Source: an uncultured Candidatus Saccharibacteria bacterium
GTDB taxonomy: Bacteria > Patescibacteriota > Minisyncoccia > Phycocordibacterales > UBA2100
Assembly (NCBI GenBank): GCA_964594735.1
Contig: CAZQMS010000005.1
Coordinates: 19,150-83,149 of the forward strand
Direction: 5' to 3'
Length of the DNA stretch: 64,000 nt
Position numbers and translations under genes: made by a program. This document shows positions 3,977 through 59,278 of the stretch, piece by piece (position 1 is the first letter of the stretch; each line of letters opens with the position of its first letter). The notes under the pieces were generated by a model that was given only the letters and a program-made list of their open reading frames with translations, searched no databases and was not told the DNA's origin.

Positions 3977-5218
3977 ATGCTGAGAAAATTTATTCCTGAG
4001 TCGTTGCGCTCCACATACCATCTCGCACTCGCACTTCTGGGCGCAGCGCTCTACGGATTCCCCTCTCGTCGCATCCGCGTCATCGGCGTGACAGGTACCA
4101 AAGGCAAGACGAGTACAAGCGAGATGATATCCGCCATCTTCGAGGCGGCGGGTGAAAAGACCGCGCTCATCAATTCTATCCGCATCAAAGTCGACCAAAG
4201 AAAAGAGCGCAATACTGGCGGCAGGTCGATGCCTGGCCGCGCCCAGCTCCAGCGCTTTCTGCGCGCCGCGGTACGCGCGGGATGCACGGTCGCCATTATC
4301 GAAATGACATCTGAAGGTGCGCGGCAACACCGTCACCGCGGTATCGAACTCGACGGTCTCGCTTTTCTCAACCTTGCGCCTGAACACATCGAATCGCACG
4401 GCTCGTACGAAGCCTACTCCGACGCGAAATTCGAACTTGGGAAAGCTCTCGCCGCATCGCCGAAAAACCCGCGCGTCGTCATCGCCAATGCCGACGACAA
4501 AGAGTCCGCGCGCTACCTCGCGCTCCCCGTCGAGACGCGAATCGCTTTTTCTCTGACCAAACATGAACCGTGGCACGCGTCCGCTTCGATGGGCACGTTC
4601 ACCTACGAAGGGCGCACCATATCCGTGCCACTCCCGGGAGAATTCTCACTCAAGAATGCGCTGGCAGCCGCGGAGATGTGCTACGCATTCGGCGCAAGCC
4701 TCGATGCGATAGAGCGTGGCCTCGCTGCACTGACACGCATACCGGGACGTGCGGAAAAGATTGATGAGGGCCAGAACTTCGCTGTCGTCGTCGACTACGC
4801 GCATACGCCGGATTCGCTCAAAGCACTGTACGATGCATTTTCCGCGCAGCGCCGCATCTGTGTCGTGAGCGCCACGGGCGGTGGACGCGACACCTGGAAG
4901 CGCCCTGTCATGGGAAAAATTGCGGATGAGATGTGCGACGAGGTCATCGTGACTGATGAAGACCCGTACGATGAGAGCCCGGTCTCGATTATGGAAAGTG
5001 TCGCGCGCGGCATGGAGCGCAAGCCTCGCATCATTCCCGACCGCCGCGAAGCAATCGCGGCAGCTCTTAGTCTCGCAAAATCGGGCGATGCTGTACTCCT
5101 CACGGGCAAAGGGACTGACCAGTACATTCATCGTGCACACGGGTATGCGGAGCCATGGGACGACGCGCGCATCGCGCGAGAAGAATTGAAAAAATTGCTC
5201 GCTGCAAGACGGGTATAA
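3977..5218 (+). CDS. murE: Mur ligase family protein, MurE-like UDP-N-acetylmuramoyl-tripeptide synthetase
   Basis: GVTGTKGKTST P-loop and a DYAHTPD-type motif of Mur ligases. The start is trimmed to the first ATG after the ruvA stop. Confidence 0.75.
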   Translation: MLRKFIPESLRSTYHLALALLGAALYGFPSRRIRVIGVTGTKGKTSTSEMISAIFEAAGEKTALINSIRIKVDQRKERNTGGRSMPGRAQLQRFLRAAVRAGCTVAIIEMTSEGARQHRHRGIELDGLAFLNLAPEHIESHGSYEAYSDAKFELGKALAASPKNPRVVIANADDKESARYLALPVETRIAFSLTKHEPWHASASMGTFTYEGRTISVPLPGEFSLKNALAAAEMCYAFGASLDAIERGLAALTRIPGRAEKIDEGQNFAVVVDYAHTPDSLKALYDAFSAQRRICVVSATGGGRDTWKRPVMGKIADEMCDEVIVTDEDPYDESPVSIMESVARGMERKPRIIPDRREAIAAALSLAKSGDAVLLTGKGTDQYIHRAHGYAEPWDDARIAREELKKLLAARRV

Positions 5219-5300
5219 TCCCATGAGATAGACATACCGATGCGCGCACGCGCTCGAACATTTCGAATAAACGAAGTGCGTTGATACGAACGGTGCAAAT

Positions 5301-5316
5301 ATCTCACGGGGTATAA
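5301..5316 (+). promoter_or_regulatory. conserved motif ATCTCACGGGGTATAA (TATAAT 7 nt before the ATG)
   Basis: One of about 7 copies of a 16-nt motif in this window; probable -10 region of a leaderless transcript. Confidence 0.45.
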
Positions 5317-5323
5317 TAATCGA

Positions 5324-6301
5324 ATGCTCCGTACCGTCCTCAAGTATGTCCTTATCGGGATGGTGCTCCTCGTGATTATCGGGTGGCTCTGGAGCGGCGG
5401 GTGGCGCGGTGTCACGAGCTTCGTGCGCACCATACCCAACCCCCTCGACATTCTCTTCGGCACGAGCACGTCTACATACGAGGTGCGACTCCCGTGGGCC
5501 ATCGGAGTACCGCAGGGCCCAGACATCGAATTGTATTTGAACGAGGGCGCTGCGAGCTACGATGCAGGGACCCCGGAGGAGCAGCTCGCCGAGCTCGAGA
5601 GCGCGTACAAGACTCTACAAGAAGAAGTCGCGAAGCAAGCGCGCTCACCGCACGCGGGCAAAGTGAAACTCTATCGCGCAAGCGCGACCGAATCTTCGGC
5701 GAGCGACGAACATGTCGTACTCGAAGCACACAGTGGTGTATCACTTCAGGGCTGGTCGCTCGCGAGCATGGTAAGCGGCGTCCGCGTGATGCTCCCGTAT
5801 GCCACACCGCTCTATCGGCAAAATAGCGTCAACACCGCATACCCCGTCGTCATGGAGCCTGGCACGACAGCGATTGTCGCGACGGGCTTCTCTCCGGCAG
5901 GTGTGTCATTGCGTGAGAATCGTTGCATGGGCTACCTCTCCTCGTCGCTCAACTTCAGTCCGCGCATTGAGCACTCCTGCCCATCGCCGTCGGATGGCAT
6001 GGCTCTCACCGACCAAAACCTACAGCGCTACGGCGGCGAGTGCATCGACTACGTGCGCACCATGCCACAGTGCACGACTCCATCGACAATTCCAGCATCA
6101 CTCTCCGCAGCGTGTCGCATCTACGTCGCAAATACGTTTACTTACAACGGCTGCATCGACGCGCACCGCGCACAGAGCGGCTTTGAATCGGACACGTGGC
6201 GACTGTACATCGGCTCAGCTGGTGAGATATGGCGCAATGAGCACGACGCAATACGTCTTCTCGATGAGCGCGGACTCACTGTCGACGCTATTATCTACTG
6301 A
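5324..6301 (+). CDS. membrane-anchored protein with a lamin-tail-domain-like segment
   Basis: N-terminal TM (VLIGMVLLVIIGWLW); EHVVLEAHSGVSLQGWSL...VVMEPGTTAIV resembles PF00932 LTD. Confidence 0.45.
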   Translation: MLRTVLKYVLIGMVLLVIIGWLWSGGWRGVTSFVRTIPNPLDILFGTSTSTYEVRLPWAIGVPQGPDIELYLNEGAASYDAGTPEEQLAELESAYKTLQEEVAKQARSPHAGKVKLYRASATESSASDEHVVLEAHSGVSLQGWSLASMVSGVRVMLPYATPLYRQNSVNTAYPVVMEPGTTAIVATGFSPAGVSLRENRCMGYLSSSLNFSPRIEHSCPSPSDGMALTDQNLQRYGGECIDYVRTMPQCTTPSTIPASLSAACRIYVANTFTYNGCIDAHRAQSGFESDTWRLYIGSAGEIWRNEHDAIRLLDERGLTVDAIIY

Positions 6302-21030: not shown

Positions 21031-21605
21031 CCGAGAAGGAAGCCAGCGGTCGCGCCGACGAGGACCGCGAGTCCGCCGACGATGCTCATGCGAAGCGCAG
21101 AGCGCACGACACCTGCGCGCGAGAGCCTCCCGCTCCACGCACCGAGGACAAAGAGCGCGATGATGGATACATATATGGAATATTGAAATGCGCTGTCACC
21201 GAGCCAGATGTACGGCGCGAGCGGGATGAGTCCCGCGACAAAGTACGAGGCAAACATTGTGCTTCCTGCCTTGAATGATTCCCCGGGACTCGTACGCTTG
21301 CGCGTCTCAAGTTCCTCAACCGAGGCTTCCGAGAGGAAGCTCCCCGCCGCCATCGACACAGCCTCGACGAAAATAAGGACAACGCCCGTGAGGATTATCG
21401 TTTCGCGTGGGACTTCCGCTATCGCAATACCGGAGAGGAGGCCCACCGTCGAGACGAGTCCGTCCTCCACGCCGAAAATGAGGTTGCGGAAATATATTGA
21501 AGTCCACTCGCGAGCTGCGCGCATCTCTCGTATCGTAACACCTACACGAGGCACACCCCGTGAGATACGAACTTCCGGGGAATATACAGAATGGTGCGTA
21601 CTCAT
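21027..21605 (-). CDS. VIT1/CCC1 family membrane protein (putative Fe/Mn transporter)
   Basis: FGVEDGLVSTVGLLSGIAIA and TM helices typical of PF01988. Confidence 0.65.
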   Translation of the reverse strand: MSTHHSVYSPEVRISRGVPRVGVTIREMRAAREWTSIYFRNLIFGVEDGLVSTVGLLSGIAIAEVPRETIILTGVVLIFVEAVSMAAGSFLSEASVEELETRKRTSPGESFKAGSTMFASYFVAGLIPLAPYIWLGDSAFQYSIYVSIIALFVLGAWSGRLSRAGVVRSALRMSIVGGLAVLVGATAGFLLG

Positions 21606-21640
21606 ATCGCACTCACGGAGGGGAAAAATCGGATAGGGTT

Positions 21641-21656
21641 ATCTCACGGGGTATAC
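21641..21656 (+). promoter_or_regulatory. conserved motif ATCTCACGGGGTATAC (7 nt before the ruvC ATG)
   Basis: Motif copy; a degenerate half copy ACTCACGGAGGGG sits 30 nt upstream. Confidence 0.45.
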
Positions 21657-21663
21657 TTTTGGC

Positions 21664-22176
21664 ATGAGAGTGCTCGCTATCGACCCTGGGTATGGGCGCT
21701 GCGGCGTCGCGCTCCTCGAGAGGCAGGGCGGCAAAGATGTACTGCTCTACTCCGACTGTATTGAGACCCATTCGAGTGAAGAATTCACCCAGCGCCTGAA
21801 TACAGTCGCTTCGGAGTGTCGGCGGCTTATGCGCGAACACGCGCCCGATTGTCTCGCGATGGAGAAGCTGTATTTTGCAAAGAGCCGCACGACAGGACTG
21901 CGCGTCGCGGAGGTGCGGGGCGCCCTCCTCGCCCTTGCCGGAGAGCACGCACTCCCCGTCTTTGAGTACTCACCATCGGAGGTCAAGAGCGCTGCCGCGG
22001 GGCACGGGGGCGCGGACAAGAAGCACGTCATCAAAATGATTCATGCGCTTGTAAAAATCATGAAGCCCATACGTCTAGATGACGAATATGACGCTATTGC
22101 TGTCGGGGTTACTCATTTGGCGATGCATCGCTCGCTTGCGGCGCGTGCACTTCAATCGGAGCCCGAAAAACGATAG
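21664..22176 (+). CDS. ruvC: crossover junction endodeoxyribonuclease RuvC
   Basis: MRVLAIDPGYGRCGVAL...DAIAVGVTH. Confidence 0.85.
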   Translation: MRVLAIDPGYGRCGVALLERQGGKDVLLYSDCIETHSSEEFTQRLNTVASECRRLMREHAPDCLAMEKLYFAKSRTTGLRVAEVRGALLALAGEHALPVFEYSPSEVKSAAAGHGGADKKHVIKMIHALVKIMKPIRLDDEYDAIAVGVTHLAMHRSLAARALQSEPEKR

Positions 22177-22191
22177 AATGAGCAGTACTGT

Positions 22192-24600
22192 ATGACTGCC
22201 CGAATTTTTAGGCGTACGAGGCGCCTTTTCTCTCATCTCCCCGAGTGGCTACGCCTCGCTGTTGTCGGTCTCGTCGCACTCGGATTCTTCACGCTTGCGA
22301 GCGTCACCGCATGGGCAGCTTTTACCCCTATCCCTTCGATAGACAACTTCGAGAATCGCGCGGTCTCGCAGTCGACCAAAATATTCGACCGCACCGGCAA
22401 CATCGTACTTTTCGACGTTCACGGCAGCATGCGCCGTACGGCCATCCCCCTCGACGACATCTCGCCCAATATCCAGAAAGCGACCATCGCTATCGAAGAC
22501 GCGACATTTTATACGCACTACGGCTTCCGCCCTCTCGCATTTATGCGCGCGGTGTGGGTCAACCTCACCACCGGCGACCTGCTCGGCGGCCAGGGCGGCT
22601 CGACGATTACGCAGCAGGTGGTAAAAAACGCGCTACTCACGCAGGACAAAAAAATAACCCGCAAGATAAAAGAAATCATTCTCGCCATCAGGCTCGAGCG
22701 TGTCTACACCAAAGACCAGATTCTCACGACGTACCTCAACGAAAATCCGTACGGCGGGACAATCTACGGCGTCCAGGAAGCGAGTCAGTATTTCTTTGGC
22801 GTCGACGCGAGCGACGTGACGCTCGCACAATCGGCGTACCTCGCCGCGCTGCCCCAGGCACCCACGCGCTACTCCCCCTATGGCAACAATCGCGACCTCC
22901 TCGAACGCCGCAAGGACCTCGTGCTCGACAGGATGCTCGAGCACCAGTTCATCACCGCGGATGAGCACGAGCAAGCGAAAGCGGAGATTGTGCAGTTTAA
23001 AGACGAGGCCGATGCGGGCATCAAGGCACCACACTTTGTCTTCTACATACGCGAGTACCTCGAGAGCAAGTACGGCGTCGACGCAGTGAATCGTGAGGGG
23101 CTTCGCGCCATCACGACACTCGACTACGACCTGCAGAAAAAAGCAGAGGAAATCGTCGCTCAGTATGCGCCAGGTATGGAGGCCAACTTCAACGCAAGCA
23201 ACCAAGGCATGGTCGCCATCGAGCCCACGTCTGGACAAGTGCTCGCCATGGTGGGCTCGCGCGGCTACTTCGACGACCGCATCGACGGCAAGGTCAACGT
23301 GACCACCTCGTACCAACAGCCGGGCTCGGCGTTCAAGCCATTCGTCTACGCCGCGGCACTCGAAAAAGGTTACACACCCGACACGATTCTCTTCGACCTT
23401 CCAACACAATTCTCGACGAGGTGCCAGCCATACGAAGTCACCAACTCGACACCGCCGTGCTACGCACCGACAAGTTTCGATGGACAGTTTAAAGGTCCGG
23501 TAACGATTCGTCAGGCGCTCGCGATGTCGCTCAACGTGCCAGCGGTGAAAGCCATGTACCTCGTGGGCATGGATGGTGCGCTCAATATGGCTGGGCGCGT
23601 CGGGCTCACGACACTCACCGCTGCGCGCGACTACGGACTCTCGCTCGTTCTCGGAGGTGGCGATGTGACACTGCTAGAGCTCACAAGTGCATACGGCGTC
23701 TTCGCCAACGACGGCGCGCGCAACCCGCACACCGCAATCCTGCGCGTGGAGGACATGAACGGCAACGTGCTTGAGGAATACAAAAAGGAGGAGGCGCGCG
23801 TCGTCGACCAGCAAGTAGCGCGCCAGATAAGCGACATCCTCTCCGACAACGAGGCACGCACACCGGAATTCGGCGCCAATTCCCCGCTCTACTTCCCCGG
23901 CAAAGATGTCGCTGCGAAGACCGGTACGACCAACGATTACTGGGATGTGTGGATTATGGGCTACACCCCGGGCATCGCTGCAGGTGCGTGGGCCGGCAAC
24001 AACGACAACGAGCCGCTCGAAAAGCGTATCGCCGCATTTATCATCGCGCCGATGTGGCACGATTTCATGGAGTACGCGATGGAGAAGTATCCCGCCGGAG
24101 ATTTCGTCGAGCCATCTCCCGACGCGGAGGCAGATTCACTCCACCCAGTGCTACGCGGCCAGTGGAACTCGTCGCCGGGCGAAGGTGTACACGAAATACT
24201 CTACTGGGTGAGTAAGGACAATCCGCGCGGAGGAGGCACTTCTCGCGGTGACGGACAGATGCCGTATTGGGATTTACCCGTACAGGCCTGGGCCACTGGT
24301 CAGTTCCTCGGCGGTGCGACGACACCAGGCCAAGGCAGTGGCTTCCGCATCCTCTCTCCAACACCGGGAAGCTTTACACCACTCTTACAACCGCTTTCCA
24401 TAACCGCGTTCTACCCGTTCCCCCAAAACGTCGTGCAGGTATCGTACTACCTCAACGGCCAGCCTATTGGGGCTTCCAGCCAGCCGCCGTACGCGATTAC
24501 CTTTGTGCCTACCCTCCCGGGCCCTGCCACTCTCCAGGCAGCTGTGCAGACGATTCTCGGCGGCACCGAAGTCACGAGTGTCCCCATCACGATTCAATAG
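22192..24600 (+). CDS. class A penicillin-binding protein (transglycosylase plus transpeptidase)
   Basis: N-terminal TM, GT51 motifs (GGSTITQQVVKN, RKIKE) and the SxxK motif SAFKPFVYAAAL. Confidence 0.85.
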   Translation: MTARIFRRTRRLFSHLPEWLRLAVVGLVALGFFTLASVTAWAAFTPIPSIDNFENRAVSQSTKIFDRTGNIVLFDVHGSMRRTAIPLDDISPNIQKATIAIEDATFYTHYGFRPLAFMRAVWVNLTTGDLLGGQGGSTITQQVVKNALLTQDKKITRKIKEIILAIRLERVYTKDQILTTYLNENPYGGTIYGVQEASQYFFGVDASDVTLAQSAYLAALPQAPTRYSPYGNNRDLLERRKDLVLDRMLEHQFITADEHEQAKAEIVQFKDEADAGIKAPHFVFYIREYLESKYGVDAVNREGLRAITTLDYDLQKKAEEIVAQYAPGMEANFNASNQGMVAIEPTSGQVLAMVGSRGYFDDRIDGKVNVTTSYQQPGSAFKPFVYAAALEKGYTPDTILFDLPTQFSTRCQPYEVTNSTPPCYAPTSFDGQFKGPVTIRQALAMSLNVPAVKAMYLVGMDGALNMAGRVGLTTLTAARDYGLSLVLGGGDVTLLELTSAYGVFANDGARNPHTAILRVEDMNGNVLEEYKKEEARVVDQQVARQISDILSDNEARTPEFGANSPLYFPGKDVAAKTGTTNDYWDVWIMGYTPGIAAGAWAGNNDNEPLEKRIAAFIIAPMWHDFMEYAMEKYPAGDFVEPSPDAEADSLHPVLRGQWNSSPGEGVHEILYWVSKDNPRGGGTSRGDGQMPYWDLPVQAWATGQFLGGATTPGQGSGFRILSPTPGSFTPLLQPLSITAFYPFPQNVVQVSYYLNGQPIGASSQPPYAITFVPTLPGPATLQAAVQTILGGTEVTSVPITIQ

Positions 24601-24607
24601 GAAACAG

Positions 24608-24997
24608 TCAACGTAAAACGGCCGACGACCAACACGAGTGCTTGGATGCAGATTTTAGATGTTTGCTGAAACCACCAAGTTGTCGCGATAATTCCTCACA
24701 ATCTGCTCGAATTTCACCGAGCTGCTCGTCCGTTATCAAATTCTCGCGTCGAGCGATCTCGCACGCTGCCATGGACTCGTTAATGGAGCCCAATGCAATG
24801 GTGACGTACCGATTGAAATCCTTATCAGAGCTCTTTGCTGAGCCCTCGGCAATGTTTAAAGCCACGGACAGGGAGCTTCGTCGCACTTGATCGGTAAGAT
24901 ACTGAAATTCGCGGGGGAATGATCTGGTTACAGCAACGATTTTCGAATGGAAACGAATACCATCCTGGTAGATCTTCACTTCTCGAAACCGAAACAT
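24608..24997 (-). CDS. four-helix-bundle protein (TIGR02436; the so-called 23S rRNA intervening-sequence protein family)
   Basis: FRFREVKIYQ...F.SKIV.VTRSFP...LTDQVRRSSLSVALNIAEGSAK...F.RYVTIALGSINE. Confidence 0.7.
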   Translation of the reverse strand: MFRFREVKIYQDGIRFHSKIVAVTRSFPREFQYLTDQVRRSSLSVALNIAEGSAKSSDKDFNRYVTIALGSINESMAACEIARRENLITDEQLGEIRADCEELSRQLGGFSKHLKSASKHSCWSSAVLR

Positions 24998-25033
24998 ACG
25001 GCTTGTTGAAAGTTGAATGTTTGATGTTGGTAG

Positions 25034-26131
25034 TTATCTATTCAGTGGCATCACGAGGTACGTGAAGCTGCTATCGGAGACGCCGCGGATAACGAGCGGT
25101 CTACCGGGGCCGGAGAATCCGAGCACGACGGAATCTGATTGTATTGTCGCCAGACAATCTGATATGTACCCGATATGGAAGTTGATATCGAGATCGTCCC
25201 CCGCGAGCGCCGCATCAATACTGTCGGACATCTCACCCACATCTGCACTACGTGCCGTGGCAGTGAAAATCTTCTTCTTTGGGTAGATGTGTAGGCCGAC
25301 GTGCATCTCCTGACCAGAGAAGACGCGTGCCTTGCGGAGCATTTCGGCAAGATCATTCTTAAGTACCGTCGCTTCCGAGGTGAACTTCTTGGGGATAATT
25401 TCTTTGTAGTTAGGAAATGTCGCATCGACGACACGAGATACGAACCTTGTTCCACTCCCAATGACCACCAATTGCGCATCATCCGTCGAAAGCGCGACAG
25501 TGTCGTCACTGAGCCTCTCGAGCACATGGACGAGCTCTAGGGCGTGTTTAAGCGGAATGAGAAGCTCTCCCGATGTGCGCGCACCTGTCTCCGAAACCAT
25601 TTTCTCCGCAAGTCGGAATGAATCAGTGGCAACGCACACCATCGAACCATCCTGCATTGAGATGTAGATACTTCCGAGATCGGGTCGAATCATCGACGGC
25701 GAAGCTGCGTATGCGACCGATTGAATACCGTGGATAAGTCTCTCACGCGCGAGTGTAATCTCTTTTTTCCCACTCTCGCTCGAGAGCACTGGAAATTCTT
25801 CATGGGGGACAGCTTTGATAAGGGTCTTTGTCCCTCTTGATTCGATGAGGAGGTTACCATCTTCAGTCGAAAGCGTCACTTTGTCGCCTCCAATAGCGCG
25901 GATTGTTTGGGAGAGGATTGCTGCGGATACTGCTACCGTACCTTTTTCTTCAACATCACCTGCGACAGATATTTCTATCCCCGCCTCAAGATTGGTCGCT
26001 TTTAAATTTATATCCTTTGCTCCCTCGATGAGTACACACGAAAGAATAGGAAGTGACTCTTTTTTTCCTGTAATGCGTTCTGCCATGAGAATCGCATTAA
26101 GAATCTTTTCTTTTGTTGTTGTGAGTTTCAT
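25034..26131 (-). CDS. dnaN: DNA polymerase III beta sliding clamp
   Basis: 365 aa in three-domain clamp layout, located downstream of dnaA. Confidence 0.85.
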   Translation of the reverse strand: MKLTTTKEKILNAILMAERITGKKESLPILSCVLIEGAKDINLKATNLEAGIEISVAGDVEEKGTVAVSAAILSQTIRAIGGDKVTLSTEDGNLLIESRGTKTLIKAVPHEEFPVLSSESGKKEITLARERLIHGIQSVAYAASPSMIRPDLGSIYISMQDGSMVCVATDSFRLAEKMVSETGARTSGELLIPLKHALELVHVLERLSDDTVALSTDDAQLVVIGSGTRFVSRVVDATFPNYKEIIPKKFTSEATVLKNDLAEMLRKARVFSGQEMHVGLHIYPKKKIFTATARSADVGEMSDSIDAALAGDDLDINFHIGYISDCLATIQSDSVVLGFSGPGRPLVIRGVSDSSFTYLVMPLNR

Positions 26132-26442
26132 ATTCTTTTCATTCTTTAAATAACTATTACTACTATTAGTACTGTGTACAGCGGGGATAACCGTAAAAAA
26201 TGGCGGAGTGGAGAGATGAAATAGTGCAACGGAGGGTGTTGAAAACTTCTGCGCGAACTAGGAACAAGGTGTGTGTAAGTGGTGTTGGTGAAGAAACGCT
26301 GAAGTTGTACGCATGTTGTCCCACCCACTGTTCGAGTAGTTGTACAGCGTTCTCCACAGGATATACCACCATGTTGTGCACAACAGTAGAGCCGCCGATT
26401 GCGTGGGAAGCGGCGGGTGTGTGAGGAGAAAATCGCATAGGC
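26132..26442. other. candidate oriC (dnaA-dnaN spacer with an AT-rich DNA-unwinding element and DnaA-box-like sites)
   Basis: A 44-nt AT-rich stretch (26132-26175) in a 60% GC genome; TTCTCCACA (1 mismatch to TTATCCACA) and TGTGCACAA / TGTGTACAG repeats. Confidence 0.45.
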
Positions 26443-27795
26443 CTACGCGTGGATGAGGGTGCGGATGTGGTCGAGTTCTTGCTCAAGTGAGTTGTTGCTC
26501 TTTATCTCCTCTTTGATTTTTTCGCACGAGTGGATGACTGTGGTGTGGTCGCGGCCGCCGAGCTTCTCCCCTATTGAAGGGTATGAGACGCTAAATTCTT
26601 CACGAAGGACGTACATGATGATCTGTCTCGGCTTGACCACCTCCTTTTTGCGCGTCTTTTCGTAGATGCTTTTCTCGGGGACTTCGTAATACTGCGCGAT
26701 GCGGCGCACCACCTCATCTATAGAGACGCCACGATTCGGCTTCACATTGTGTTTGATGAGGGCGCGTACGTCGGCGTGCGATATCGCTTTGCCCTTGAGC
26801 TGCGATTTGCACACAATCATATTGAGAACACCTTCAAGTTCGCGGATGTTGCCGCGCACGTTCTCAGCGATGTACTGGATGATGTCTTCCGGTATGGAAA
26901 AACCGTGCTGCTCTATTTTTGCCTTGATGATGGCGATGCGGCTCTCTACATCGGGCTCCGGTATCTCCGCGATGACACCGGCGGCGAAGCGGCCTTTGAG
27001 GCGCTCCTCAAAGCCCGGGAGGAGCGATGGGTGTTTATCTGACGAGAAGACAATTTGTTTGTTGTTGTCGTGAAGTGCGTTGAAGAGGTGGAAGAGTTCT
27101 TCCTGGGTCTTCTCTGTGTTTGCGATGAACTGGATGTCGTCCATGATGAGGACATCGTACTGACGGTACTGGTCTTTGAAGTTGTTGGCGCGTCCCGCAC
27201 GCACGGCGTTGATGTAATCAATCGCGAAGCGCTCCGATGTGACGTAGAGCACTTTTTTGTTCGCGTGCTGTTTCTTGAAATGATTGCCAACCGCTTGGAT
27301 GAGGTGGGTCTTGCCGTGACCTGTCGAGCCGTAGATGAAAAGCGGATTGTACGTGAGGCCCGGGCGATCTATCACCGCCTTTGCTGCCGCGTGGGCAAGC
27401 TGATTGAAGGGGCCGACGACAAATGTCTCAAATGTGTAGCGTGGGTTGAGGTTGTCGCGCTTGTCTATATAGAGAGACTGGAGGTCGAACGACGCGTTCT
27501 CCTGGGGCTTTTCAGCGCGCGGCGCCCTGCGCTCGGCACTCGGGGCACTGCGATGAACGACGTACTCGACGGTGCGAATAGTGTTGTCGAGGCTACGGAG
27601 TGCCTTGAGGATGAGCTTGTGGTGTTTCTCGAGCAGCCACTCTTTCACAATCTTCGACGGCACGGCCACCTGCACTGTCCCCGACTCGCGGTTTGCGATG
27701 TCAGTATTGCGAAACCAAGTGCGGAAGGAGGCTTGTGATGTTCCTAATTCTATTTGGACCAATGCGTTCTGCCATAGTTCTCGATTGGTCATCAT
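26443..27795 (-). CDS. dnaA: chromosomal replication initiator DnaA
   Basis: GSTGHGKTHL Walker A, AAA+ sensor motifs and a C-terminal DNA-binding domain. The track start is TTG at 27804; the ATG at 27795 is likelier. Confidence 0.9.
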   Translation of the reverse strand: MMTNRELWQNALVQIELGTSQASFRTWFRNTDIANRESGTVQVAVPSKIVKEWLLEKHHKLILKALRSLDNTIRTVEYVVHRSAPSAERRAPRAEKPQENASFDLQSLYIDKRDNLNPRYTFETFVVGPFNQLAHAAAKAVIDRPGLTYNPLFIYGSTGHGKTHLIQAVGNHFKKQHANKKVLYVTSERFAIDYINAVRAGRANNFKDQYRQYDVLIMDDIQFIANTEKTQEELFHLFNALHDNNKQIVFSSDKHPSLLPGFEERLKGRFAAGVIAEIPEPDVESRIAIIKAKIEQHGFSIPEDIIQYIAENVRGNIRELEGVLNMIVCKSQLKGKAISHADVRALIKHNVKPNRGVSIDEVVRRIAQYYEVPEKSIYEKTRKKEVVKPRQIIMYVLREEFSVSYPSIGEKLGGRDHTTVIHSCEKIKEEIKSNNSLEQELDHIRTLIHA

Positions 27796-27962
27796 AGATA
27801 TCAACAGCGAATGAAGCTCACGTATTATACGCGTGCAGCTTTCGCTGGGAAGCGCCGCGGGAGTGTTACGACATGTTCACAACCTGTGTACAACCTGTTG
27901 ATTACTTTTTCGCCCACCATCGCTGTTGCCATGTGCCAGATTTTGCCGTATAGTCCGAAGTC

Positions 27963-28097
27963 ATGAGACGAACCTATCAGCCGAAGAAGCGCAAGCGAGC
28001 GAAAACACATGGTTTCCGCTCCCGCACGACGACTACCAAGGGGCAAAAGGTGCTCCGCAGGCGTCGTCAGAAGGGACGCAAGCGCCTCTCCGCATAG
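27963..28097 (+). CDS. rpmH: 50S ribosomal protein L34
   Basis: [44 protein letters not shown] (44 aa, translated by hand; below the ORF-track size cutoff). TATAGT lies 8 nt upstream. Confidence 0.9.
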
Positions 28098-28099
28098 CG

Positions 28100-28426
28100 A
28101 TGCCCAAAAAGAACCGCCTCAGCGGTGCCGAAATACGGCGGATACGCTCCCCTCGCCGCTCCCACGGCGAACTTTTCTCACTGTCCGTCTCCCCCTCGGA
28201 TGGTGCGGAGGCTAAGTTCGCATGCGTGGTATCCAAGAAGGTTGCGAGTTCGGCCGTGCGGCGCAATACGATAAAGCGCAGGTGCCGCGACATATTTCGC
28301 GGCAGCCTCGTAAGCCTCCCCGCAGGTTCCTACATACTCTATGCCAAGAAGGGTGCCGCCGAGGCATCGTACGCGGCGATGGCCGAGGATCTTGCGAAGC
28401 TCCTGCGGGGGCTGCGTAGCGCATAA
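28100..28426 (+). CDS. rnpA: ribonuclease P protein component
   Basis: MPKKNRLSGAEIRRI...IKRRCRDIFR; starts 3 nt after the rpmH stop. Confidence 0.85.
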   Translation: MPKKNRLSGAEIRRIRSPRRSHGELFSLSVSPSDGAEAKFACVVSKKVASSAVRRNTIKRRCRDIFRGSLVSLPAGSYILYAKKGAAEASYAAMAEDLAKLLRGLRSA

Positions 28427-28465
28427 GGAGAAGCGGCGGTACAATACGCCCCAACATCCCCGGCC

Positions 28466-29206
28466 ATGATTAGCTCCATTTTCCATACACTCGTCTACGA
28501 CCCGATATACAACGCGCTCGTATTCTTCGTCGATGTCGTACCAGGGCACGATGTCGGGCTCGCGGTCATCATTGTGACCATCATTGTGCGCGTCATTCTC
28601 TACCCGCTTTCGAAGAAGGCCATCAAAGCGCAGATGGACATGAAGCGCATTGCGCCGGAGATTGAGGAGATAAAGAAGAAGTTCAAAGACAAGCCCGAAG
28701 AGCAAGGTCGCGCGATATTCGCGCTCTATCGAGAGCGTGGCGTAAGTCCTTTCGCCGGTCTCTTTCTCCTCCTCATTCAGCTTCCGATTCTGCTCGGGCT
28801 CTATTTTGTCTTTGCGCAGGGCGGCTTGCCGAGCATCAACGCCGACCTTTTGTACTCTTTCGTGCCGACGCCGCCGTCAGTGGACATGGAGTTTCTCGGC
28901 CTTATCGACATGGCCGGCAAGAGCCTCGTCCTTGCCCTGCTCGCGGGCGTGACGCAATTTATCTATACACGTCTATCTATGGGGCCGCGCGGCTCGGCGG
29001 TAGCCGCGGAAGCGTCGTTCTCCGCGGAAATGGCGCGCACTTTCGACTTGCAGGCGCGCTACGCACTGCCCCTCATCGTCGCGGGCATCGCCTACTTCAT
29101 TGCGGCAGCGGCCCCCCTCTACTGGCTGACGAGTAACCTGTTCATGATAGGCCAAGAGCTCCTCTCCGGTCGCCGGTTCAACCCCAAGACCGAAAAGGAC
29201 TCGTAG
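28466..29206 (+). CDS. yidC: membrane protein insertase YidC (short, monoderm type)
   Basis: 246 aa; YidC/Oxa1 core TM helices with a conserved RVILYPL-like segment. Confidence 0.85.
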   Translation: MISSIFHTLVYDPIYNALVFFVDVVPGHDVGLAVIIVTIIVRVILYPLSKKAIKAQMDMKRIAPEIEEIKKKFKDKPEEQGRAIFALYRERGVSPFAGLFLLLIQLPILLGLYFVFAQGGLPSINADLLYSFVPTPPSVDMEFLGLIDMAGKSLVLALLAGVTQFIYTRLSMGPRGSAVAAEASFSAEMARTFDLQARYALPLIVAGIAYFIAAAAPLYWLTSNLFMIGQELLSGRRFNPKTEKDS

Positions 29207-29296
29207 CCGTACTCCCACAGACGACCTATACTCAGGGGGCAAACGCGCCCGATATTAGAACACGCGCCCCATGGCCTCCGTATTGCCGAGAGTCTA

Positions 29297-29311
29297 CCTC
29301 ACGGGGTCTAC
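29297..29311 (+). promoter_or_regulatory. degenerate motif copy CCTCACGGGGTCTAC followed by a 26-codon mini-ORF starting ATGAGAT
   Basis: Seen directly; pairs with the full motif 100 nt downstream. Confidence 0.35.
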
Positions 29312-29397
29312 CCCATGAGATGTCCGCCGCCTGCCCACCGCATCGCTAGTTTTCGCATTACGACATATGTTTTCAGCTCAGGTATTGCCGATTAACT

Positions 29398-29413
29398 ATC
29401 TCACGGGGTATAG
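29398..29413 (+). promoter_or_regulatory. conserved motif ATCTCACGGGGTATAG (9 nt before the jag ATG)
   Basis: Motif copy. Confidence 0.45.
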
Positions 29414-29421
29414 TGCCCTCC

Positions 29422-40760: not shown

Positions 40761-41668
40761 GGTGTTTTTTGGCCGTAGTAATTGCCGAGTGCATCGAAAG
40801 CGTAGAACATCTTTTGCTCAGCGGTGTTGTAACTGCGCAGGAGGGCGACGGTCGCGAATTCGTCGAGAGTATTCCCTGCCATCGCGTCGAGCGTTGCGTC
40901 GAATAGCGAAAGTGCGTTGAGCACATCGAGGTGGTAGTTGATTGCGTCGCGAGGGGCGACGACTGCCGCCGCGTTCGTGAGCGCTTTGTCGTAGTTGGCA
41001 GCGGCCTCTGCGAGTGTCTTGAGGTGCGCCTCATCGCTCGTCTCGACGTACCGAGCGAAAATATCGAGCTCCGACTCTGTGTTCTCAAGGAGTGGTGCGA
41101 GCGCATCACGCAAATCGCTTCGGTACTCAAGCATCCGATTGTAGGAAATATCGGTGTCTGTCCGCACATCCGCGGAGGTATAGGTTTTGTATGAGATGAC
41201 GGCTTTCACGTTGCGCGCAATACTCTCCGCGACCGCGTCGCCCGCCGCCTCTGAGTACGTACCGCTTTCGACGAGTCCCGCATACTGGCCAACGAGCTGT
41301 GCGACCACGATAGGACCAATCATGGCGATAGGGTCTTCGCCGGATGCATTACTCGTCTCGGATGTAGTCGCGAGACCGAGCAGTACGAGTTCTTGCTGCC
41401 ATGACGCATCGGTGGCAGGAATAGCGGCGCCAGATACAGTGTCGACTTCTGCGACAGCAGGCTGCACTATGTCGGAGACGAGAAGGCGTAGCTGGAAGAG
41501 AAGTGCACCGAGGAGCACCACGACGGCGAGTGCCGCCGTAGCTGTGATTCGTGAGCGGAAAAGAAAATGGAATACACGCACAATATAAGTATACCCCGTT
41601 AGATCGTCGCACCTCTGTGTTTTACCCAGAAAACTAAGGACATTTTGCCTGCATGTGCTTGCACGCAT
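40757..41668 (-). CDS. membrane-anchored protein (the true start is probably near 41585, after the motif)
   Basis: Single TM; distantly similar to the next gene (41750-42625). The 5' part of the track ORF is overlapped by a motif copy. Confidence 0.4.
   Translation of the reverse strand: MRASTCRQNVLSFLGKTQRCDDLTGYTYIVRVFHFLFRSRITATAALAVVVLLGALLFQLRLLVSDIVQPAVAEVDTVSGAAIPATDASWQQELVLLGLATTSETSNASGEDPIAMIGPIVVAQLVGQYAGLVESGTYSEAAGDAVAESIARNVKAVISYKTYTSADVRTDTDISYNRMLEYRSDLRDALAPLLENTESELDIFARYVETSDEAHLKTLAEAAANYDKALTNAAAVVAPRDAINYHLDVLNALSLFDATLDAMAGNTLDEFATVALLRSYNTAEQKMFYAFDALGNYYGQKTP
41589..41604 (-). promoter_or_regulatory. conserved motif ATCTAACGGGGTATAC (minus strand)
   Basis: Inverted partner of the plus-strand copy 77 nt away. 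Confidence 0.4.
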
Positions 41669-41681
41669 GCGACGCGAGGAT

Positions 41682-41697
41682 ATCTAACGGGGTATAC
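41682..41697 (+). promoter_or_regulatory. conserved motif ATCTAACGGGGTATAC (plus strand, with no plus-strand gene downstream)
   Basis: Seen directly. Confidence 0.35.
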
Positions 41698-41749
41698 CGC
41701 GCTCAAAGACGCAAAAGTGTAGATATTCCACCGAATTGCGCGGTTTTTT

Positions 41750-43928: not shown

Positions 43929-45866
43929 CTAGCGAATGGTATCGATATCGTCGAGGAGCGAGCGTTTTTGCGGTGTAACCTGCGCCACGAGCCTCGCATC
44001 GATGTCGTCGATGAATTCCGACGGTATGGTGTACTCGCGCGAGCCGTATTTCATGCGTTCGAGCGCGTACGAGAGAAAAAGGCGCTTCTTTGCACGCGTA
44101 AGGGCAACGTAAAAGAGTCGTCTGTCTTCCTCTGGGTCGCGCTTCTCATCTTCTCGTGTCGAGGGAAAGAGTCCTTGCTCCATGCCGGTGATGAAGACGG
44201 CGTCGAACTCAAGACCTTTCGATGCGTGCACGGTCATCAGTGACACCGCTGGCTTCTCTTCTGCGAGTTCATCTTGGTCGCTCTGGAGCGCCGCTTCTTC
44301 GAGTAGTTTTTCAACGCCCTCCGGTGGGGCAGCATTGTCGTACTTCGTCGAGACGTTGATAAGCTCCTGGATGTTGCCCAGCCGCTCTTCTCCGTCGTCA
44401 CGGCCCTCGTACATTTTTTTCATACCGCTCGCTTCGACTGTGTACCGCACTGCCTCCGACGCGGGGAGTGTATCGATCGCGTGTTTGATGCGCGCGAGTG
44501 TGTCACGGAAGGCCGCGATTTTCGCTTGCGCGGCGCGCGGGAGCTCTGCGTCTTTTCCGGCGAGCACTTTGTCGAGCGTCACTTTGCCGATGCCGCGTGG
44601 CGGGACGGCGATGACGCGAGAGATGTCGATTCTGTTGTGCGGATTCATCGCGGCACGCAGGTACGAGAGGATATCCTTCACCTCCTTTCTTTCGAAAAAG
44701 CGTGTGCCGAGGACGCGGTAGGGAACGGAGAGGTGTAGCATTGCTTCCTCTATCGCGCGCGACTGGAAATTCTCTCGATAGAGCACTGCTATTTCTCCCG
44801 CCGGCGTGCCGCGCTCGATGAGCTCCATCGCCTGGCTCGCGATAAACCACGCTTCGTCGATTTCGTTGCGCGCACCAAAGAGTACGATGGCCTCGCCGGT
44901 CTCTTTGTCAGTGAAAAGCTTTTTCGGGCGCCGCCGTACGTTCTTCTCGATGACCGAGTTTGCCGCAGTGAGAATTGTGTTGGTCGAACGGTAGTTCTGC
45001 TCGAGTAGTACGACTTTTGCGCCGGGAAAGTTGTCCTCGAATCCCAAAAGGTGCTCGATGTCTGCGCCGCGCCAGCTATAAATGTTCTGGTCGGTGTCAC
45101 CGACGACGCAGATGTTACGCTTCTCACCCGCGAGGAGGCGCGCTATTTCATACTGGGCACGATTCGTGTCTTGGTACTCATCGATAGTGAGGTGGGACCA
45201 GCGGTTGGTGAGAAGCGAACGGATACGCTCGGAATTTCGCAGGAGCCGGAGTGTGCGGAAGAGGAGGTCGTCGAAATCGAGTGCACCCTCTTCCAGAAGC
45301 GCCTTCTCGTACACGGGCCAGACTTGCGCGACGGCACGTTCACGGAATGTGCGCGCCTTTGCGGCGAACTCTTCCGGCGAAACGCCGTCGCCTTTCTCGC
45401 GCGATATCGCAGATAGGAATGCGCGTGGTGGCCAGTTTTCAATACCGAGACGCTCCACTTCTGCCTTCACCGCGCGGAGGCTGTCGTCCCTGTCCCAGAT
45501 GGTAAAGCCGCGCGGGAGCCCCGCCTCTTGGTGGAACTCGCGCAGCAGCCTCACGCCGAGCGCATGGAACGTCGTCATGAGCGGCATCCCGCCGCCTTCC
45601 GGCAGGAGCGCGCGCACGCGCTCGCGCATTTCCCCCGCTGCCTTATTGGTAAACGTGACCGCCAGTATCTTGTGGGCAGGTGTCCCGTTCTCTATTAAAT
45701 GAGCGATGCGGTGCGTGATGGTCTTGGTCTTGCCCGCCCCGGCTCCGGCGACGATAAGAATGGGCCCGTCGGTGTGGAGGACCGCCTCTTTCTGACGGTC
45801 GTTCAGGCCTTCGAGACTTGTCCCATTAGATAAGGAGTCGGATTTCTTTGGTTCGTCATGGGTCAT
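43929..45866 (-). CDS. pcrA: ATP-dependent DNA helicase PcrA/UvrD family
   Basis: AGAGAGKTKTITHRIA Walker A, and TFTNKAAGEMRERV. Confidence 0.85.
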   Translation of the reverse strand: MTHDEPKKSDSLSNGTSLEGLNDRQKEAVLHTDGPILIVAGAGAGKTKTITHRIAHLIENGTPAHKILAVTFTNKAAGEMRERVRALLPEGGGMPLMTTFHALGVRLLREFHQEAGLPRGFTIWDRDDSLRAVKAEVERLGIENWPPRAFLSAISREKGDGVSPEEFAAKARTFRERAVAQVWPVYEKALLEEGALDFDDLLFRTLRLLRNSERIRSLLTNRWSHLTIDEYQDTNRAQYEIARLLAGEKRNICVVGDTDQNIYSWRGADIEHLLGFEDNFPGAKVVLLEQNYRSTNTILTAANSVIEKNVRRRPKKLFTDKETGEAIVLFGARNEIDEAWFIASQAMELIERGTPAGEIAVLYRENFQSRAIEEAMLHLSVPYRVLGTRFFERKEVKDILSYLRAAMNPHNRIDISRVIAVPPRGIGKVTLDKVLAGKDAELPRAAQAKIAAFRDTLARIKHAIDTLPASEAVRYTVEASGMKKMYEGRDDGEERLGNIQELINVSTKYDNAAPPEGVEKLLEEAALQSDQDELAEEKPAVSLMTVHASKGLEFDAVFITGMEQGLFPSTREDEKRDPEEDRRLFYVALTRAKKRLFLSYALERMKYGSREYTIPSEFIDDIDARLVAQVTPQKRSLLDDIDTIR

Positions 45867-45905
45867 AAAAGGACAATAGTCTCCGTATCGGCGTTAGATG
45901 TGCCT

Positions 45906-45921
45906 ATCTAACGGGGTAGAC
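45906..45921 (+). promoter_or_regulatory. motif variant ATCTAACGGGGTAGAC followed by a 4-codon mini-ORF (ATGGGGCGACTATAG)
   Basis: Preceded by the inverted half-site CGTTAGAT. Confidence 0.35.
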
Positions 45922-46320
45922 ATGGGGCGACTATAGCACGGTGCCACGCCTCATATTGAGAATGGCTCAACAGAGCCATATAATCGCTTGACTTTCGTGT
46001 TATCCACCGCCCCGCTCGATTATGAATTGACGCTGAACACCCCCCACAGGTATTGTTTATACCAACGGTGGCACATACCGACACTACAGTTCTGGCTCTC
46101 TCTGCAATAGCGAGGTTCTAAGCCAAAGGGAAGCTCATCCGCCCGTGCCGTCGCCAAAATTAGGCTTATTTCGGGCATACAACGTGACTTCCCGGGGGGT
46201 CGAAAGACTTCGCCGGGGAAGAAATATCGCTCAGCAAGGCTCGTCGCGACGGCAGTTTCACTCATTTCGCTCATATTTGTTGTCGGCAGTCTCTACCCCG
46301 CGGTTGCGCGGGCGTCTGTT

Positions 46321-57571: not shown

Positions 57572-59278
57572 TCAATCGAGGAGCAGACGCGCGAGGCGGA
57601 TGTCTTCGAAGGAGTGCGCGCCTCTCAGTGCTTTGAATATTGGAGTGAGCTGCATCGTCTTACTTTTTTTGAACGCCGCGTGAATAGTAGCGATTTTTTT
57701 CGCGTCTTTCTTTGGCACAAGCTTTTCTATCTCGGCGAGACTGAGCGTGCCGCGTTCTTTGAGCTCTTCGAGGTGCGAAATGATGGTCTCGGGTTTGAGG
57801 CTGCGCGCCTTCGCAATATCTTGGATAGATTTTTCGGTGCGTGCGAGTGCGAGCGTGGCCTCATAGGTATCGACTTTCTCCGTCTGTTTCTTTCGTGCAC
57901 CTCCGCGTGGATTTCCCCCGACCGCCGTGACGAACGCATCCGCGTAAGAAGTGTGCTCGGCTTTCGCCATCTCTTCAAATCGTTTGCGCGCTGCGGCGGA
58001 GGCCCACTTGAAGTCGCGGTCGCGCTTCACGATGTCCGGATGCACGAGGAGTGCGCGGTCGTTGTAGCCGACGAGGTGGAGTGATTGGAGGGTGCGTACG
58101 CGCGAGAGTGCGACGTACCCTTGCCCGTATTCAAATGCCGATGCGAGGTCGACCGCTGCGGCGTCGAGCGTCATGCCTTGGCTTTTGTGCACCGTGATTG
58201 CCCACGCGAGTCGAAGCGGTACCTGCGTAATGCGCGCGAGCACCTTCCCGCCGTCGGTCACGGACCATTCTGCGGGCTCGACCTCGAGTGTGCGCCCCGT
58301 ATTCGTTCTCACGATGGGTCCGAGTGCGCCGAAGCCCGTCACTTCGCCAAGCGTGCCGTTGGCGTAGAGGCCATCCATGCTGTTTTTCGTGAACATGACC
58401 CGTGCACCGACTTTCAGCGTGAGTGTCTCGGGAGAAAGGCAGCCGCGCTTCAGTGTCTCGACGAGGTGTGCGCTGCCTTTGGCGAGCATGGCGTACGAGC
58501 GCGATGTGCCGTCGATGCGCGCGAGTCGCTGGTCGTTCTCGCGATCCGCATTGGCATTGTGTGTGTAGAGCCGCGCCACATGCTCGGGCACGTCGCCCTC
58601 GTCGGTGGCACGCGATGAGAGCATCTCGTGGTGCGCGTCTTCTATGGAGCCGCTTCGAATCGCGTCGAGAAGGTGCAGGAACTCCTGGTCACTTTGCCGG
58701 TGTTGTTCCGAGAGGTAACACACGAGCGGATTCGCTGCTTCCCAGGCGCTCGATGTGAAAGCAAAGAGCGCGCTGGGCTTCGGCGCGGGCGCCTCACGCC
58801 CCGTCTCGAAATCAATCGACGGGCTCGCTGCGATGTCTTTCGAGACGGGCGGCAACTGGAAAAAATCGCCGACAAAGACGACCTGCATCCCGCCCCAGGG
58901 CTTTTCGCTACTTTTGAGTGCGCGGATGGCGGTCTCGACCATCGAGAGCGTGCGCGCATCTATCATCGAGATTTCGTCGAGAATGAGTACGCGCGCACTC
59001 TGCGCGCGCCGCACGAGTCGCTCACGCGTCAGCATCTCGTCGAGATCGTACTTCGTGAGTTCGCGCCTCACCCCGATGCCCGACCACGCGTGAATCGTCA
59101 TGCCACCGACATGCGTCGCGGCGATACCCGTCGATGCGGTCACTGCAGGCTCGATGCCGCGTTCGCGGAGCCACTCGATGTACGCATTGATCGTGTGCGT
59201 CTTCCCGCTCCCCGGCTTGCCTGTGAGAAACACATTGGCGCCGGTTTGAAGGATGGAAAGAGCGGTCGCCTGCTTCAT
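57572..59278 (-). CDS. Pif1/RecD2-like SF1 DNA helicase with a C-terminal helix-turn-helix-like extension
   Basis: LTGKPGSGKTH, LILDEISM, VFVGDFFQLPPV, and VHKSQGMTLD. Confidence 0.75.
   Translation of the reverse strand: MKQATALSILQTGANVFLTGKPGSGKTHTINAYIEWLRERGIEPAVTASTGIAATHVGGMTIHAWSGIGVRRELTKYDLDEMLTRERLVRRAQSARVLILDEISMIDARTLSMVETAIRALKSSEKPWGGMQVVFVGDFFQLPPVSKDIAASPSIDFETGREAPAPKPSALFAFTSSAWEAANPLVCYLSEQHRQSDQEFLHLLDAIRSGSIEDAHHEMLSSRATDEGDVPEHVARLYTHNANADRENDQRLARIDGTSRSYAMLAKGSAHLVETLKRGCLSPETLTLKVGARVMFTKNSMDGLYANGTLGEVTGFGALGPIVRTNTGRTLEVEPAEWSVTDGGKVLARITQVPLRLAWAITVHKSQGMTLDAAAVDLASAFEYGQGYVALSRVRTLQSLHLVGYNDRALLVHPDIVKRDRDFKWASAAARKRFEEMAKAEHTSYADAFVTAVGGNPRGGARKKQTEKVDTYEATLALARTEKSIQDIAKARSLKPETIISHLEELKERGTLSLAEIEKLVPKKDAKKIATIHAAFKKSKTMQLTPIFKALRGAHSFEDIRLARLLLD

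Follow-up and report, generated by a model that had tools for sequence, protein, structure and literature searches.

Correia elements are miniature inverted-repeat transposable elements (MITEs) of Neisseria, inverted-repeat elements of ~100–155 bp at TA-rich intergenic targets, with 26-bp terminal inverted repeats (TIRs), conserved cores and a TA duplication, known from one genus. Their ends feed the −10 boxes of adjacent genes, and the hairpins transcribed from them can be processed. Another kind of paired repeat is the REPIN, built from two inverted conserved 16-mers 71 bp apart whose spacer is limited in length and has hairpin ability, and which is mobilized by RAYTs, the tyrosine transposases associated with repetitive extragenic palindromic (REP) sequences (PMC3116915). 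RAYT-like genes termed TIRYT go together with inverted repeats that share GGGGWSAS and form repeat families (PMC3733652, PMC6006769). In the literature searched we found no description of a TIRYT-type family in Patescibacteria, and nothing relevant on MITEs in candidate phyla, on leaderless genes in Patescibacteria or on the repeat sequence reported here. We analyzed a 64 000-nt stretch from an uncultured Candidatus Saccharibacteria bacterium (Patescibacteriota; GCA_964594735.1, contig CAZQMS010000005.1, positions 19 150–83 149; hereafter the window), in which an 11-nt motif, ATCTMAYGGGG, recurs directly upstream of start codons. We put the probability at about three in four that this motif is the TIR of a ~100-bp non-autonomous mobile hairpin element inserted at −10 boxes upstream of genes. 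The best reading of the family is that it is new, resembles REPINs and MITEs, and settles in leaderless −10 boxes.

With at most 2 mismatches, ATCTMACGGGGTATA matched the window 9 times, whereas 100 dinucleotide shuffles predict 0.07 matches, and every motif copy listed in the first-pass annotation, which was made from the letters of the window, was recovered where it had been placed. The hexamers following the forward copies are TATAAT, TATACT, TATAGT and TATACT, after which come 6–7 nt and an ATG or GTG (starts at 5324, 21664 and 29422 on the plus strand and at 41581 on the minus strand). That annotation had rightly taken TATA(A/C/G)T as the −10 box before the start, with a distance of 7–9 nt that we measured as 6–7 nt. 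Each forward copy has an inverted partner, CCCCRTKAGAT, 71–77 nt away and upstream on the gene strand (5220–5229, 21556–21566 and 29311–29321, and 41682–41692 for the minus-strand gene). A fifth full element (E) lies on the minus strand at 45.9 kb, with arms at 45906–45916 and 45822–45831 around a 74-nt core. The element consists of CCCCRTKAGAT, an unconserved core of 71–77 nt and ATCTMAYGGGG, in total ~96–103 bp, with TIRs of 10–16 nt and usually with T-R-W-A flanks. The suggestion that the motif can form hairpins was borne out; every forward arm has a complementary inverted arm. What had been described as degenerate copies followed by CCCATGAGAT are sequences that do exist, but they are the inverted partner arms. 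The ATGAGA ‘mini-ORF’ is no feature of its own, ATGAGAT being the reverse complement of the arm variant ATCTCAT, and the plus-strand copy at 41682–41697, which indeed has no gene after it, is the distal arm of element D. By BLAST we found no similarity among the five window cores, or between them and the window or any fetched locus; in Rfam only tRNAs passed the gathering score, and the elements were unmatched even at E ≤ 5.

The loci of relatives, given below by L numbers, were collected via RuvC, UvrD and the LTD-domain protein, and syntenic stretches of roughly 55–65 kb per genome were compared. L201, L207 and L213 are different loci of the nearest genome, and L203 and L210 are loci of another; the window RuvC is identical to protein P0001 of the protein collection. 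The features of the five elements are as follows.

5213–5219, plus strand: element A, the left of the two GTATAAT target copies, as seen from the empty sites of L213/L214/L215; holds the TAA stop (5216–5218) of the upstream Mur-ligase gene
5220–5229, plus strand: element A, left (distal) arm CCCATGAGAT, which is ATCTCATGGG inverted; the ‘mini-ORF ATGAGA’ begins here
5230–5300, no strand: element A, 71-nt unconserved core, unlike the other cores and the fetched loci
5301–5311, plus strand: element A, right (proximal) arm ATCTCACGGGG, a motif match
5312–5317, plus strand: −10 box TATAAT, the right target copy, 6 nt ahead of the LTD-domain gene (ATG at 5324)
21556–21566, plus strand: element B, distal arm CCCCGTGAGAT, a motif match
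21567–21640, no strand: element B, 74-nt core
21641–21657, plus strand: element B, proximal arm ATCTCACGGGG with −10 box TATACT, 6 nt ahead of ruvC (ATG at 21664)
29296–29321, no strand: element C, 26-bp palindrome ACCTCACGGG-GTCTAC-CCCATGAGAT (an older arm-like flank, TCTA, then the distal arm 29311–29321), 26/26 identical in L201
29322–29397, no strand: element C, 76-nt core, 68% identical to L201, its last 17 nt 100%
29398–29414, plus strand: element C, proximal arm ATCTCACGGGG with −10 box TATAGT, 7 nt ahead of jag/KhpB (ATG at 29422)
41588–41604, minus strand: element D, proximal arm ATCTAACGGGG with −10 box TATACT, 6 nt ahead of the start codon (GTG at 41581)
41605–41681, no strand: element D, 77-nt core, 34 nt of it 94% identical in L207
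41682–41698, plus strand: element D, distal arm ATCTAACGGGG with TATACC, a dead target copy with no gene after it
45906–45916, minus strand: element E, left arm CCCCGTTAGAT, after ATG-TCTA
45832–45905, minus strand: element E, 74-nt core with a partial third arm (45892–45899), a new −10 box TATTGT (45873–45878) and a new uvrD ATG (45864–45866)
45822–45831, minus strand: element E, right arm ATCTAATGGG, translated in the new uvrD N-terminus (..LSNGT..)
45921–45923, minus strand: ancestral uvrD start codon, with its old −10 box TATAGT at 45930–45935

We next compared these loci with those of the relatives. The window holds 5 elements in the syntenic stretch, the nearest genome (L201/L207/L213) 2, and both the L203/L210 genome and L205 hold 0. 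Locus A is empty in L213, L214 and L215 (79%, 61% and 55% protein identity). There only 7 nt separate the Mur-ligase stop from the LTD-gene ATG, the stop TAA lies within the −10 box, and the site reads GGGTATAAT+6+ATG, i.e. GG(G)TATAAT+6+ATG (cggcGGGTATAATagtgtgATG, ggaaGGTATAATgcccgcATG and cgagGGTATAATgccaccATG in the three relatives). In the window the sequence runs gacGG-GTATAAT, then CCCATGAGAT, 71 nt and ATCTCACGGG, then GTATAAT-aatcgaATG. Compared with the relatives, 98 nt are inserted, and the 7-bp target stands on either side, its left copy with the stop codon and its right copy with the −10 box. Locus B (ruvC) is empty in L201, L203 and L205, thus even in the nearest genome, and without the element the ruvC promoter reads GGGGTATACT+6+ATG in L201, GTATACT in L203 and TACAAT in L205. 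At locus C (jag) only L201/L202 carry the element besides the window; L203 and L205 have none, yet jag in L205 shows GGGGTATAGT+7+ATG. The empty sites of locus D, a promoter of the secretion cluster, read GAGCGCGG-TATA-CTTGTATCGTG in L209 and GCAGGG-TATA-CTTATATCGTG in L210 (in short, GCGCGG-TATA-CT and GCAGGG-TATA-CT), compared with GAGCGCGG-TATA-element-TATA-CTTATATTGTG in the window. The motif is missing from this promoter in L208–L210, and L207 of the nearest genome has the element with its left arm decayed. Compared with the empty sites, the target copies are GTATAAT at locus A and GTATAC or TATA at locus D; at loci B, C and E they are imperfect.

At locus E, ~96–99 extra nt follow right behind the ancestral uvrD ATG, in the window only. 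In the relatives uvrD starts as TATAGT+6–7+ATG AAG/CAG TAT CTC. In the window the old ATG now begins a 9-codon open reading frame (ORF), and the element has severed the ancestral start. A new −10 box, a new ATG and 16 new residues, derived from the element core and right arm, give an N-terminus, MTHDEPKKSDSLSNGT.., that is unlike those of all relatives (MKYLDGLN../MQYL..). This recalls the Rickettsia palindromic elements and intragenic REPs, where a palindromic repeat likewise lies within a reading frame and is translated; unlike them, uvrD had its old start cut off and gained a new promoter and start in the core, which is not a simple in-frame insertion. Because the −10 boxes and the G-rich bases upstream of them are present in the empty sites, both are older than the ATCTMAC part, and it is the ~100-nt block that comes and goes. 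As far as the sequences tell, this presence/absence pattern is that of a mobile element, unlike what a conserved regulatory system would show.

The empty sites bear directly on the proposal of the first-pass annotation that the fixed upstream bases, ATCTMACGGGG followed by TATAnT, form an extended promoter or operator for a dedicated sigma factor or transcription factor with its regulon. One may add to this view that the inverted copy would be a second operator for DNA looping. Close relatives keep the −10 boxes and the genes at the ruvC, jag, LTD-gene and secretion-cluster promoters without ATCTMAC and the ~100-nt block. Moreover, one motif copy lies inside the uvrD coding sequence, and in other genomes copies split transposase genes, enclose tRNA genes and occur in nested and tandem arrays. 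No gene set is common to the carrier contigs listed. A dedicated regulator is therefore highly improbable in our view, although in four genes the motif adjoins the −10 box in constant register, the pair spacing of 71–77 nt is fairly constant and the element C arms are 100% conserved between the window and L201 despite the diverged core. We infer that the conserved 11 nt show where the element has inserted and do not act as a regulatory signal. Two findings that the annotation had named as speaking against its proposal were largely obtained, a longer mobile repeat and orthologous promoters without the motif, except that the element is not scattered at random among genes but lies exactly at −10 boxes. 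Nor is ATGAGA at the start of ruvC and rpmH tied to the motif, as had been suggested: it merely encodes Met-Arg, and at ruvC L203 keeps ATGAGA without the motif while L201 has ATGAAA.

Outside the window, a scan of metagenome contigs for TACCCCGTKAGAT-N60–90-ATCTMAYGGG found the arm pair in at least 120 contigs of 31–60% GC from many environments. Among the matches listed, to which the following pair statistics refer, the gap between paired arms peaks sharply at 70–79 nt although 60–90 nt was permitted, and the consensus is T-ATCT-M-A-Y-GGGG-T-R-W-A with no conservation beyond it. The A/C position co-varies between the arms (137 matched versus 8 mismatched), while at the C/T position 94 pairs are G-C, 51 carry a single substitution and 0 are doubly substituted to A-T. 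AT-rich contigs contain the same arms as simple hairpins (6–50-nt loops), as nested and tandem arrays and as ~260–280-nt units; the arm order is invariably CCCC..AGAT, loop, ATCT..GGGG. Adjacent arms, in the listed contigs as well as at 29296–29321, always form 26-bp 10-6-10 palindromes. Within single contigs the same core was found twice, a few kb apart and 89–96% identical. The distribution is patchy, since the 11-mer had 0 copies in 1.3 Mb around uvrD from 80 species representatives (~30 Patescibacteria). A complete tRNA gene (Val, Thr and Val) lies exactly within the arms in L101 (7097–7202), L121 (2108–2209) and L139 (1428–1536), the only 3 such cases among the 60 metagenome loci that were scanned first with ARAGORN. 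The sequences just outside these arms are what is left of the 5′ and 3′ parts of another, homologous tRNA, and ARAGORN with introns allowed did not call the outer halves as an intron-bearing tRNA.

Several candidate identities were rejected. ARAGORN and Rfam give no tRNA in the window cores, which disposes of tRNA-like cores, and a CRISPR-like array does not agree with end half-repeats, only 1–3 units and identical ‘spacers’ in tandem arrays. For a DNA uptake sequence the density is too low (~one pair per 7–13 kb) and the fixed pairing geometry unsuited, and an invertible promoter would not have its −10 box outside the repeats and cores of just ~75 bp. As to a phage origin, the palindrome is absent in viral contigs and the arm pair occurs in only 2.

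To judge from the sequence of the window and its relatives, TATA(A/C/G)T is the ordinary −10 box of putatively leaderless genes. Genes of this kind are common in the window, whose organism is placed among the Patescibacteria (Paceibacteria, Kaiserbacteria-like) by the names of proteins and by uvrD neighborhoods. TANNNT stands 5–8 nt before the first start in 16 of 56 crude gene calls, compared to 2.6% of all start-like triplets, and a Shine–Dalgarno-like sequence was seen in 3 of the 56. By eye ~20 window genes have a −10 pattern, mostly of the TGn-type extended form and without ATCTMAC, and many window promoters show no clear −35. The −10 hexamers at the element loci are also kept in the relatives. 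The distance from motif to start is fixed because the element sits at the −10 TATA and the −10 box is 6–7 nt from leaderless starts. Each insertion leaves the target copy near the gene as an intact −10 box, the far copy being TATACC or TCTA or retaining the stop codon of the upstream gene, and replaces the native G-rich bases directly upstream of the −10 box with the GGGG end of the element. In the GC-rich-clade metagenome contigs listed, arms with TATACT, TATAGT or TATAAT usually have an ORF start 12–16 nt after GGGG and partner arms with TATACC almost never have an ORF; TATACC results from the duplicated TATA followed by the ancestral upstream GG, read from the opposite strand. The promoters would keep working, as the −10 box may suffice and the GGGG end may mimic the native upstream GG(G). 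The insertion is presumably tolerated because promoter function would survive it. In this respect Correia elements differ: here the −10 box pre-exists in the empty sites, so that a promoter is preserved and not created. Their TIR sequence is also unrelated to our arms, and their cores are conserved, which ours are not.

We then evaluated conservation and folding. In element C the palindrome (26/26) and the right arm with the promoter (27/27) are identical between the window and L201, 53/53 in total, compared with 68% for the core, 79–87% for the flanking sequence and 79–83% for the flanking genes. Arm conservation is not uniform, as shown by the decayed left arm of element D in L207, and the lineage-specific insertions A, B and E have unrelated cores and near-perfect arms. 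The single-strand folding z value is −4.8 for element B and −8.6 for element D, while A, C and E (−1.2 to −1.6) fold like shuffled sequence. These data can be read in terms of a structural element selected by the host, in which a long-range stem of RNA or DNA serves as terminator, insulator or processing site and mobility is the mode of arrival only. The complementary arm pairs with their co-variation of 137 to 8, the folding of B and D, and the arms of element C conserved in place are in agreement with this, as are the position of A, C and D between co-directional genes directly upstream of a leaderless promoter and the tRNA genes exactly within the arms in three contigs. Such a function is quite unlikely, however, when A, C and E do not fold better than shuffled sequence and arm pairing on the gene strand of A and C meets an A.C mismatch and not a G.U pair. 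L207 has lost the left arm of element D and kept the gene pair, relatives manage without the element, and the sequence itself, beyond its pairing, is conserved across genomes of 31–60% GC among the matches listed.

Regarding a mobilizing enzyme, ORF clustering on the element-bearing contigs listed yielded one transposase cluster, Y1_Tnp (PF01797, E 1e-6 to 6e-13), in 4 of 120 contigs, and no other transposase or recombinase enriched near the elements. In NCBIfam these proteins best match the model for the REP-associated tyrosine transposase, with scores under its cut-off. L152 has an intact gene, 1.6 kb from an element, and its product also carries a DnaA_C helix-turn-helix (HTH) domain (Bac_DnaA_C). 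The gene is split by the element in L129 and L141 at the same codon, between ..EYPGAI(Y) and HVMNRG..., and in L171 by another element near its 3′ end. In none of the 120 loci listed does an arm pair surround a transposase ORF, and the longest cores there are ~260–280 nt. A further Y1_Tnp-like gene, frameshifted or interrupted, lies next to uvrD in L010 (11948–12651, Candidatus Zambryskibacteria). It is flanked by palindromic hairpins, GTTGACACTCGGTGTCAAC and GTTGACACCGAGTGTCAAC, of the form GTTGACAC-N3-GTGTCAAC and unlike the arms of the window; placed between such different hairpins, it shows that REPtron-like units exist in the phylum.

A number of observations count against a mobile element of the kind proposed here. 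The arms of element C are conserved beyond neutral decay, which on sequence grounds suggests either a function in place or homogenization. The five cores are dissimilar, whereas a classical MITE burst would leave similar ones. TATA is palindromic, so that a true target duplication is inseparable from a terminal TATA borne by the element, and in the AT-rich contigs the 4-mers on either side (TTTA...TGAA) do not form direct repeats, nor do they form perfectly inverted ones. We found no transposase, recombinase or integrase gene in the 64-kb window, and at the loci of the relatives no transposase or integrase save a Y1_Tnp-like ORF in L205 (1–570), which has HYH but Thr at the expected catalytic Tyr (LFQGRTK) and is probably inactive; the RuvC of L205 is 70% identical to that of the window, and its 20-kb locus has 0 motif copies. 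The Y1 link rests on 4 contigs, and in 3 of these the element lies within the gene instead of on either side of it. With no Y1 gene in the window or at the relatives' loci other than this probably inactive one, it is a link that we infer.

Nevertheless, we consider mobilization by a Y1 (HUH, IS200-like) transposase of the REP-associated type, acting on a single-stranded hairpin as in the REPIN/RAYT and TIR/TIRYT systems, to be the most likely route for a mobile ~100-bp element. Excision may be seamless, so that a single presence/absence difference could be a gain or a loss. TATA or GTATAAT on both sides could stem from a true duplication, as by a DDE-type enzyme, or from a target tetranucleotide together with a terminal TATA borne by the element, as by an HUH-type enzyme. 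It is accordingly conceivable that the same element is moved by another enzyme, either a tyrosine or serine recombinase acting on the 10-6-10 palindrome (ATCTMAYGGG-GTRWAY-CCCRTKAGAT) as an att- or dif-like core, or a DDE transposase with a 4–7-bp duplication. Although adjacent arms always form the 26-bp 10-6-10 palindromes, genes for recombinases or DDE transposases are neither enriched around the elements in the contigs listed nor present in the window, and Y1_Tnp is the only linked enzyme family found. The filled and empty pairs do resemble attL/attR sites that share GTATAC or GTATAAT with the empty site, and GG(G)TATA(C/G/A)T of the empty sites resembles the palindrome centre. But the shared core differs by locus (GTATAAT, GTATAC and GTATAG), unlike conservative recombination with a single attP, and direct repeats are missing from the AT-rich contig flanks. 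Altogether another enzyme appears unlikely.

A more specific proposal, possible but doubtful at present, is that these elements belong to an undescribed Y1-mobilized hairpin-repeat family whose specific target would be the melted part of leaderless promoters and which would be widespread, in Patescibacteria as well as in some other lineages. The element would land 3′ of the −10 TATA (loci A–D) or just behind the +1 ATG (locus E), both of which would lie in single-stranded DNA opened by RNA polymerase, the substrate that HUH enzymes require. As it regenerates the −10 box together with a G-rich upstream context, the element would be tolerated, perhaps even exapted, and it may donate promoters and start codons, as in uvrD. 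Under this proposal, conservation of the arms in place would reflect a host function.

Compared with REPINs and their RAYTs, the elements described here share the inverted doublets, a length-constrained and less conserved spacer, a ~100-nt hairpin and an extragenic location, single or clustered, and the candidate enzyme is of the same Y1/HUH family. They differ in that the arms are individually not palindromic REPs, that there is no GTAG/GTGG guide tetranucleotide, the flanks being T-R-W-A (TATA, TGAA, TAAA, TTTA) or CAAG, and that the arm sequence is common to genomes of 31–60% GC whereas REPs are species-specific. Furthermore, the Y1 genes are interrupted and not flanked, and insertion is at −10 boxes. 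Also comparable are the TIRtron/TIRYT systems and TnpA-Y1 subclass 2.1, in which Y1 transposases are tied to TIRs and not to REPs and which show dimers and clusters. GGGGTGAA fits 7 of the 8 positions of GGGGWSAS in a comparison at the level of the motif. The Bac_DnaA_C HTH carried by the L152 protein is typical of TnpA-Y1 subclass 2.1.2. In contrast to our elements, the published TIRs flank the transposase gene.

We also noted sequences and genes beside these elements. The distal arm of element B lies 16 nt upstream of the TACGAT −10 box of the divergent VIT1 gene (start 21524, minus strand), which is annotated as 165 aa in L201. The distal arm of element D, the plus-strand copy without a gene, points into a terminator-like sequence (41697–41746, CCGCGC...GCGCGG and then T6) that adjoins the arm on its outer side and lies downstream of the preceding gene of the secretion cluster. 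The 89-nt stretch 29207–29295, from the yidC stop to the palindrome, is 87% identical to L201, more than the neighboring coding DNA and far more than the element core. Upstream of ruvB is a 30-nt inverted repeat (16298–16327/16401–16430, 83% complementary, 73 nt between) whose sequence is unrelated to the motif. In L088, L092, L135, L153, L168, L184, L186, L189 and L192 a conserved, highly structured module of ~300 nt surrounds the element upstream of varying genes, in the order TAAAGGGCTTTGTC..., hairpin, ...AAAACCTT, element, GTGCTCAATGTTGTAGCTAAATTT...AAATTTAGACAACATTGGCATG; L135 has two copies 1.5 kb apart. The region 24000–28500 is an origin-type neighborhood (dnaN 25034–26131 and dnaA 26443–27804, both minus, rpmH 27963, plus, then yidC and jag), where GC dips to 0.52 and the GC skew changes sign. 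ParS- or Noc-like sites near oriC were considered for a half-site likeness and set aside, as orientation and spacing are unsuited. Between the PBP gene and dnaN, a 23S_rRNA_IVP-family gene (24608–24997, minus) is also present in L205 and not in L201. A Pif1-like helicase gene with a C-terminal HTH_40 (57572–59278, minus), between the NYN and TerC genes, occupies a site without a gene in L207, L209 and L210 and is possibly another lineage-specific insertion.

Taken together, our analysis removes a tempting but wrong inference of a regulon and sigma factor from the annotation of a candidate-phyla genome, and documents a repeat family in organisms that are usually called streamlined and repeat-poor. 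The clean pairs of filled and empty sites reveal a mobile element that lands precisely in −10 boxes without destroying them, and in uvrD the promoter, the start codon and the N-terminus have been replaced by the element. The conservation of the arms across very different genomes is unusual, as REP-type sequences are normally species-specific. If both the Y1 link and the targeting of promoters hold true, the family would offer a tractable case of single-strand transposition aimed at transcription bubbles.

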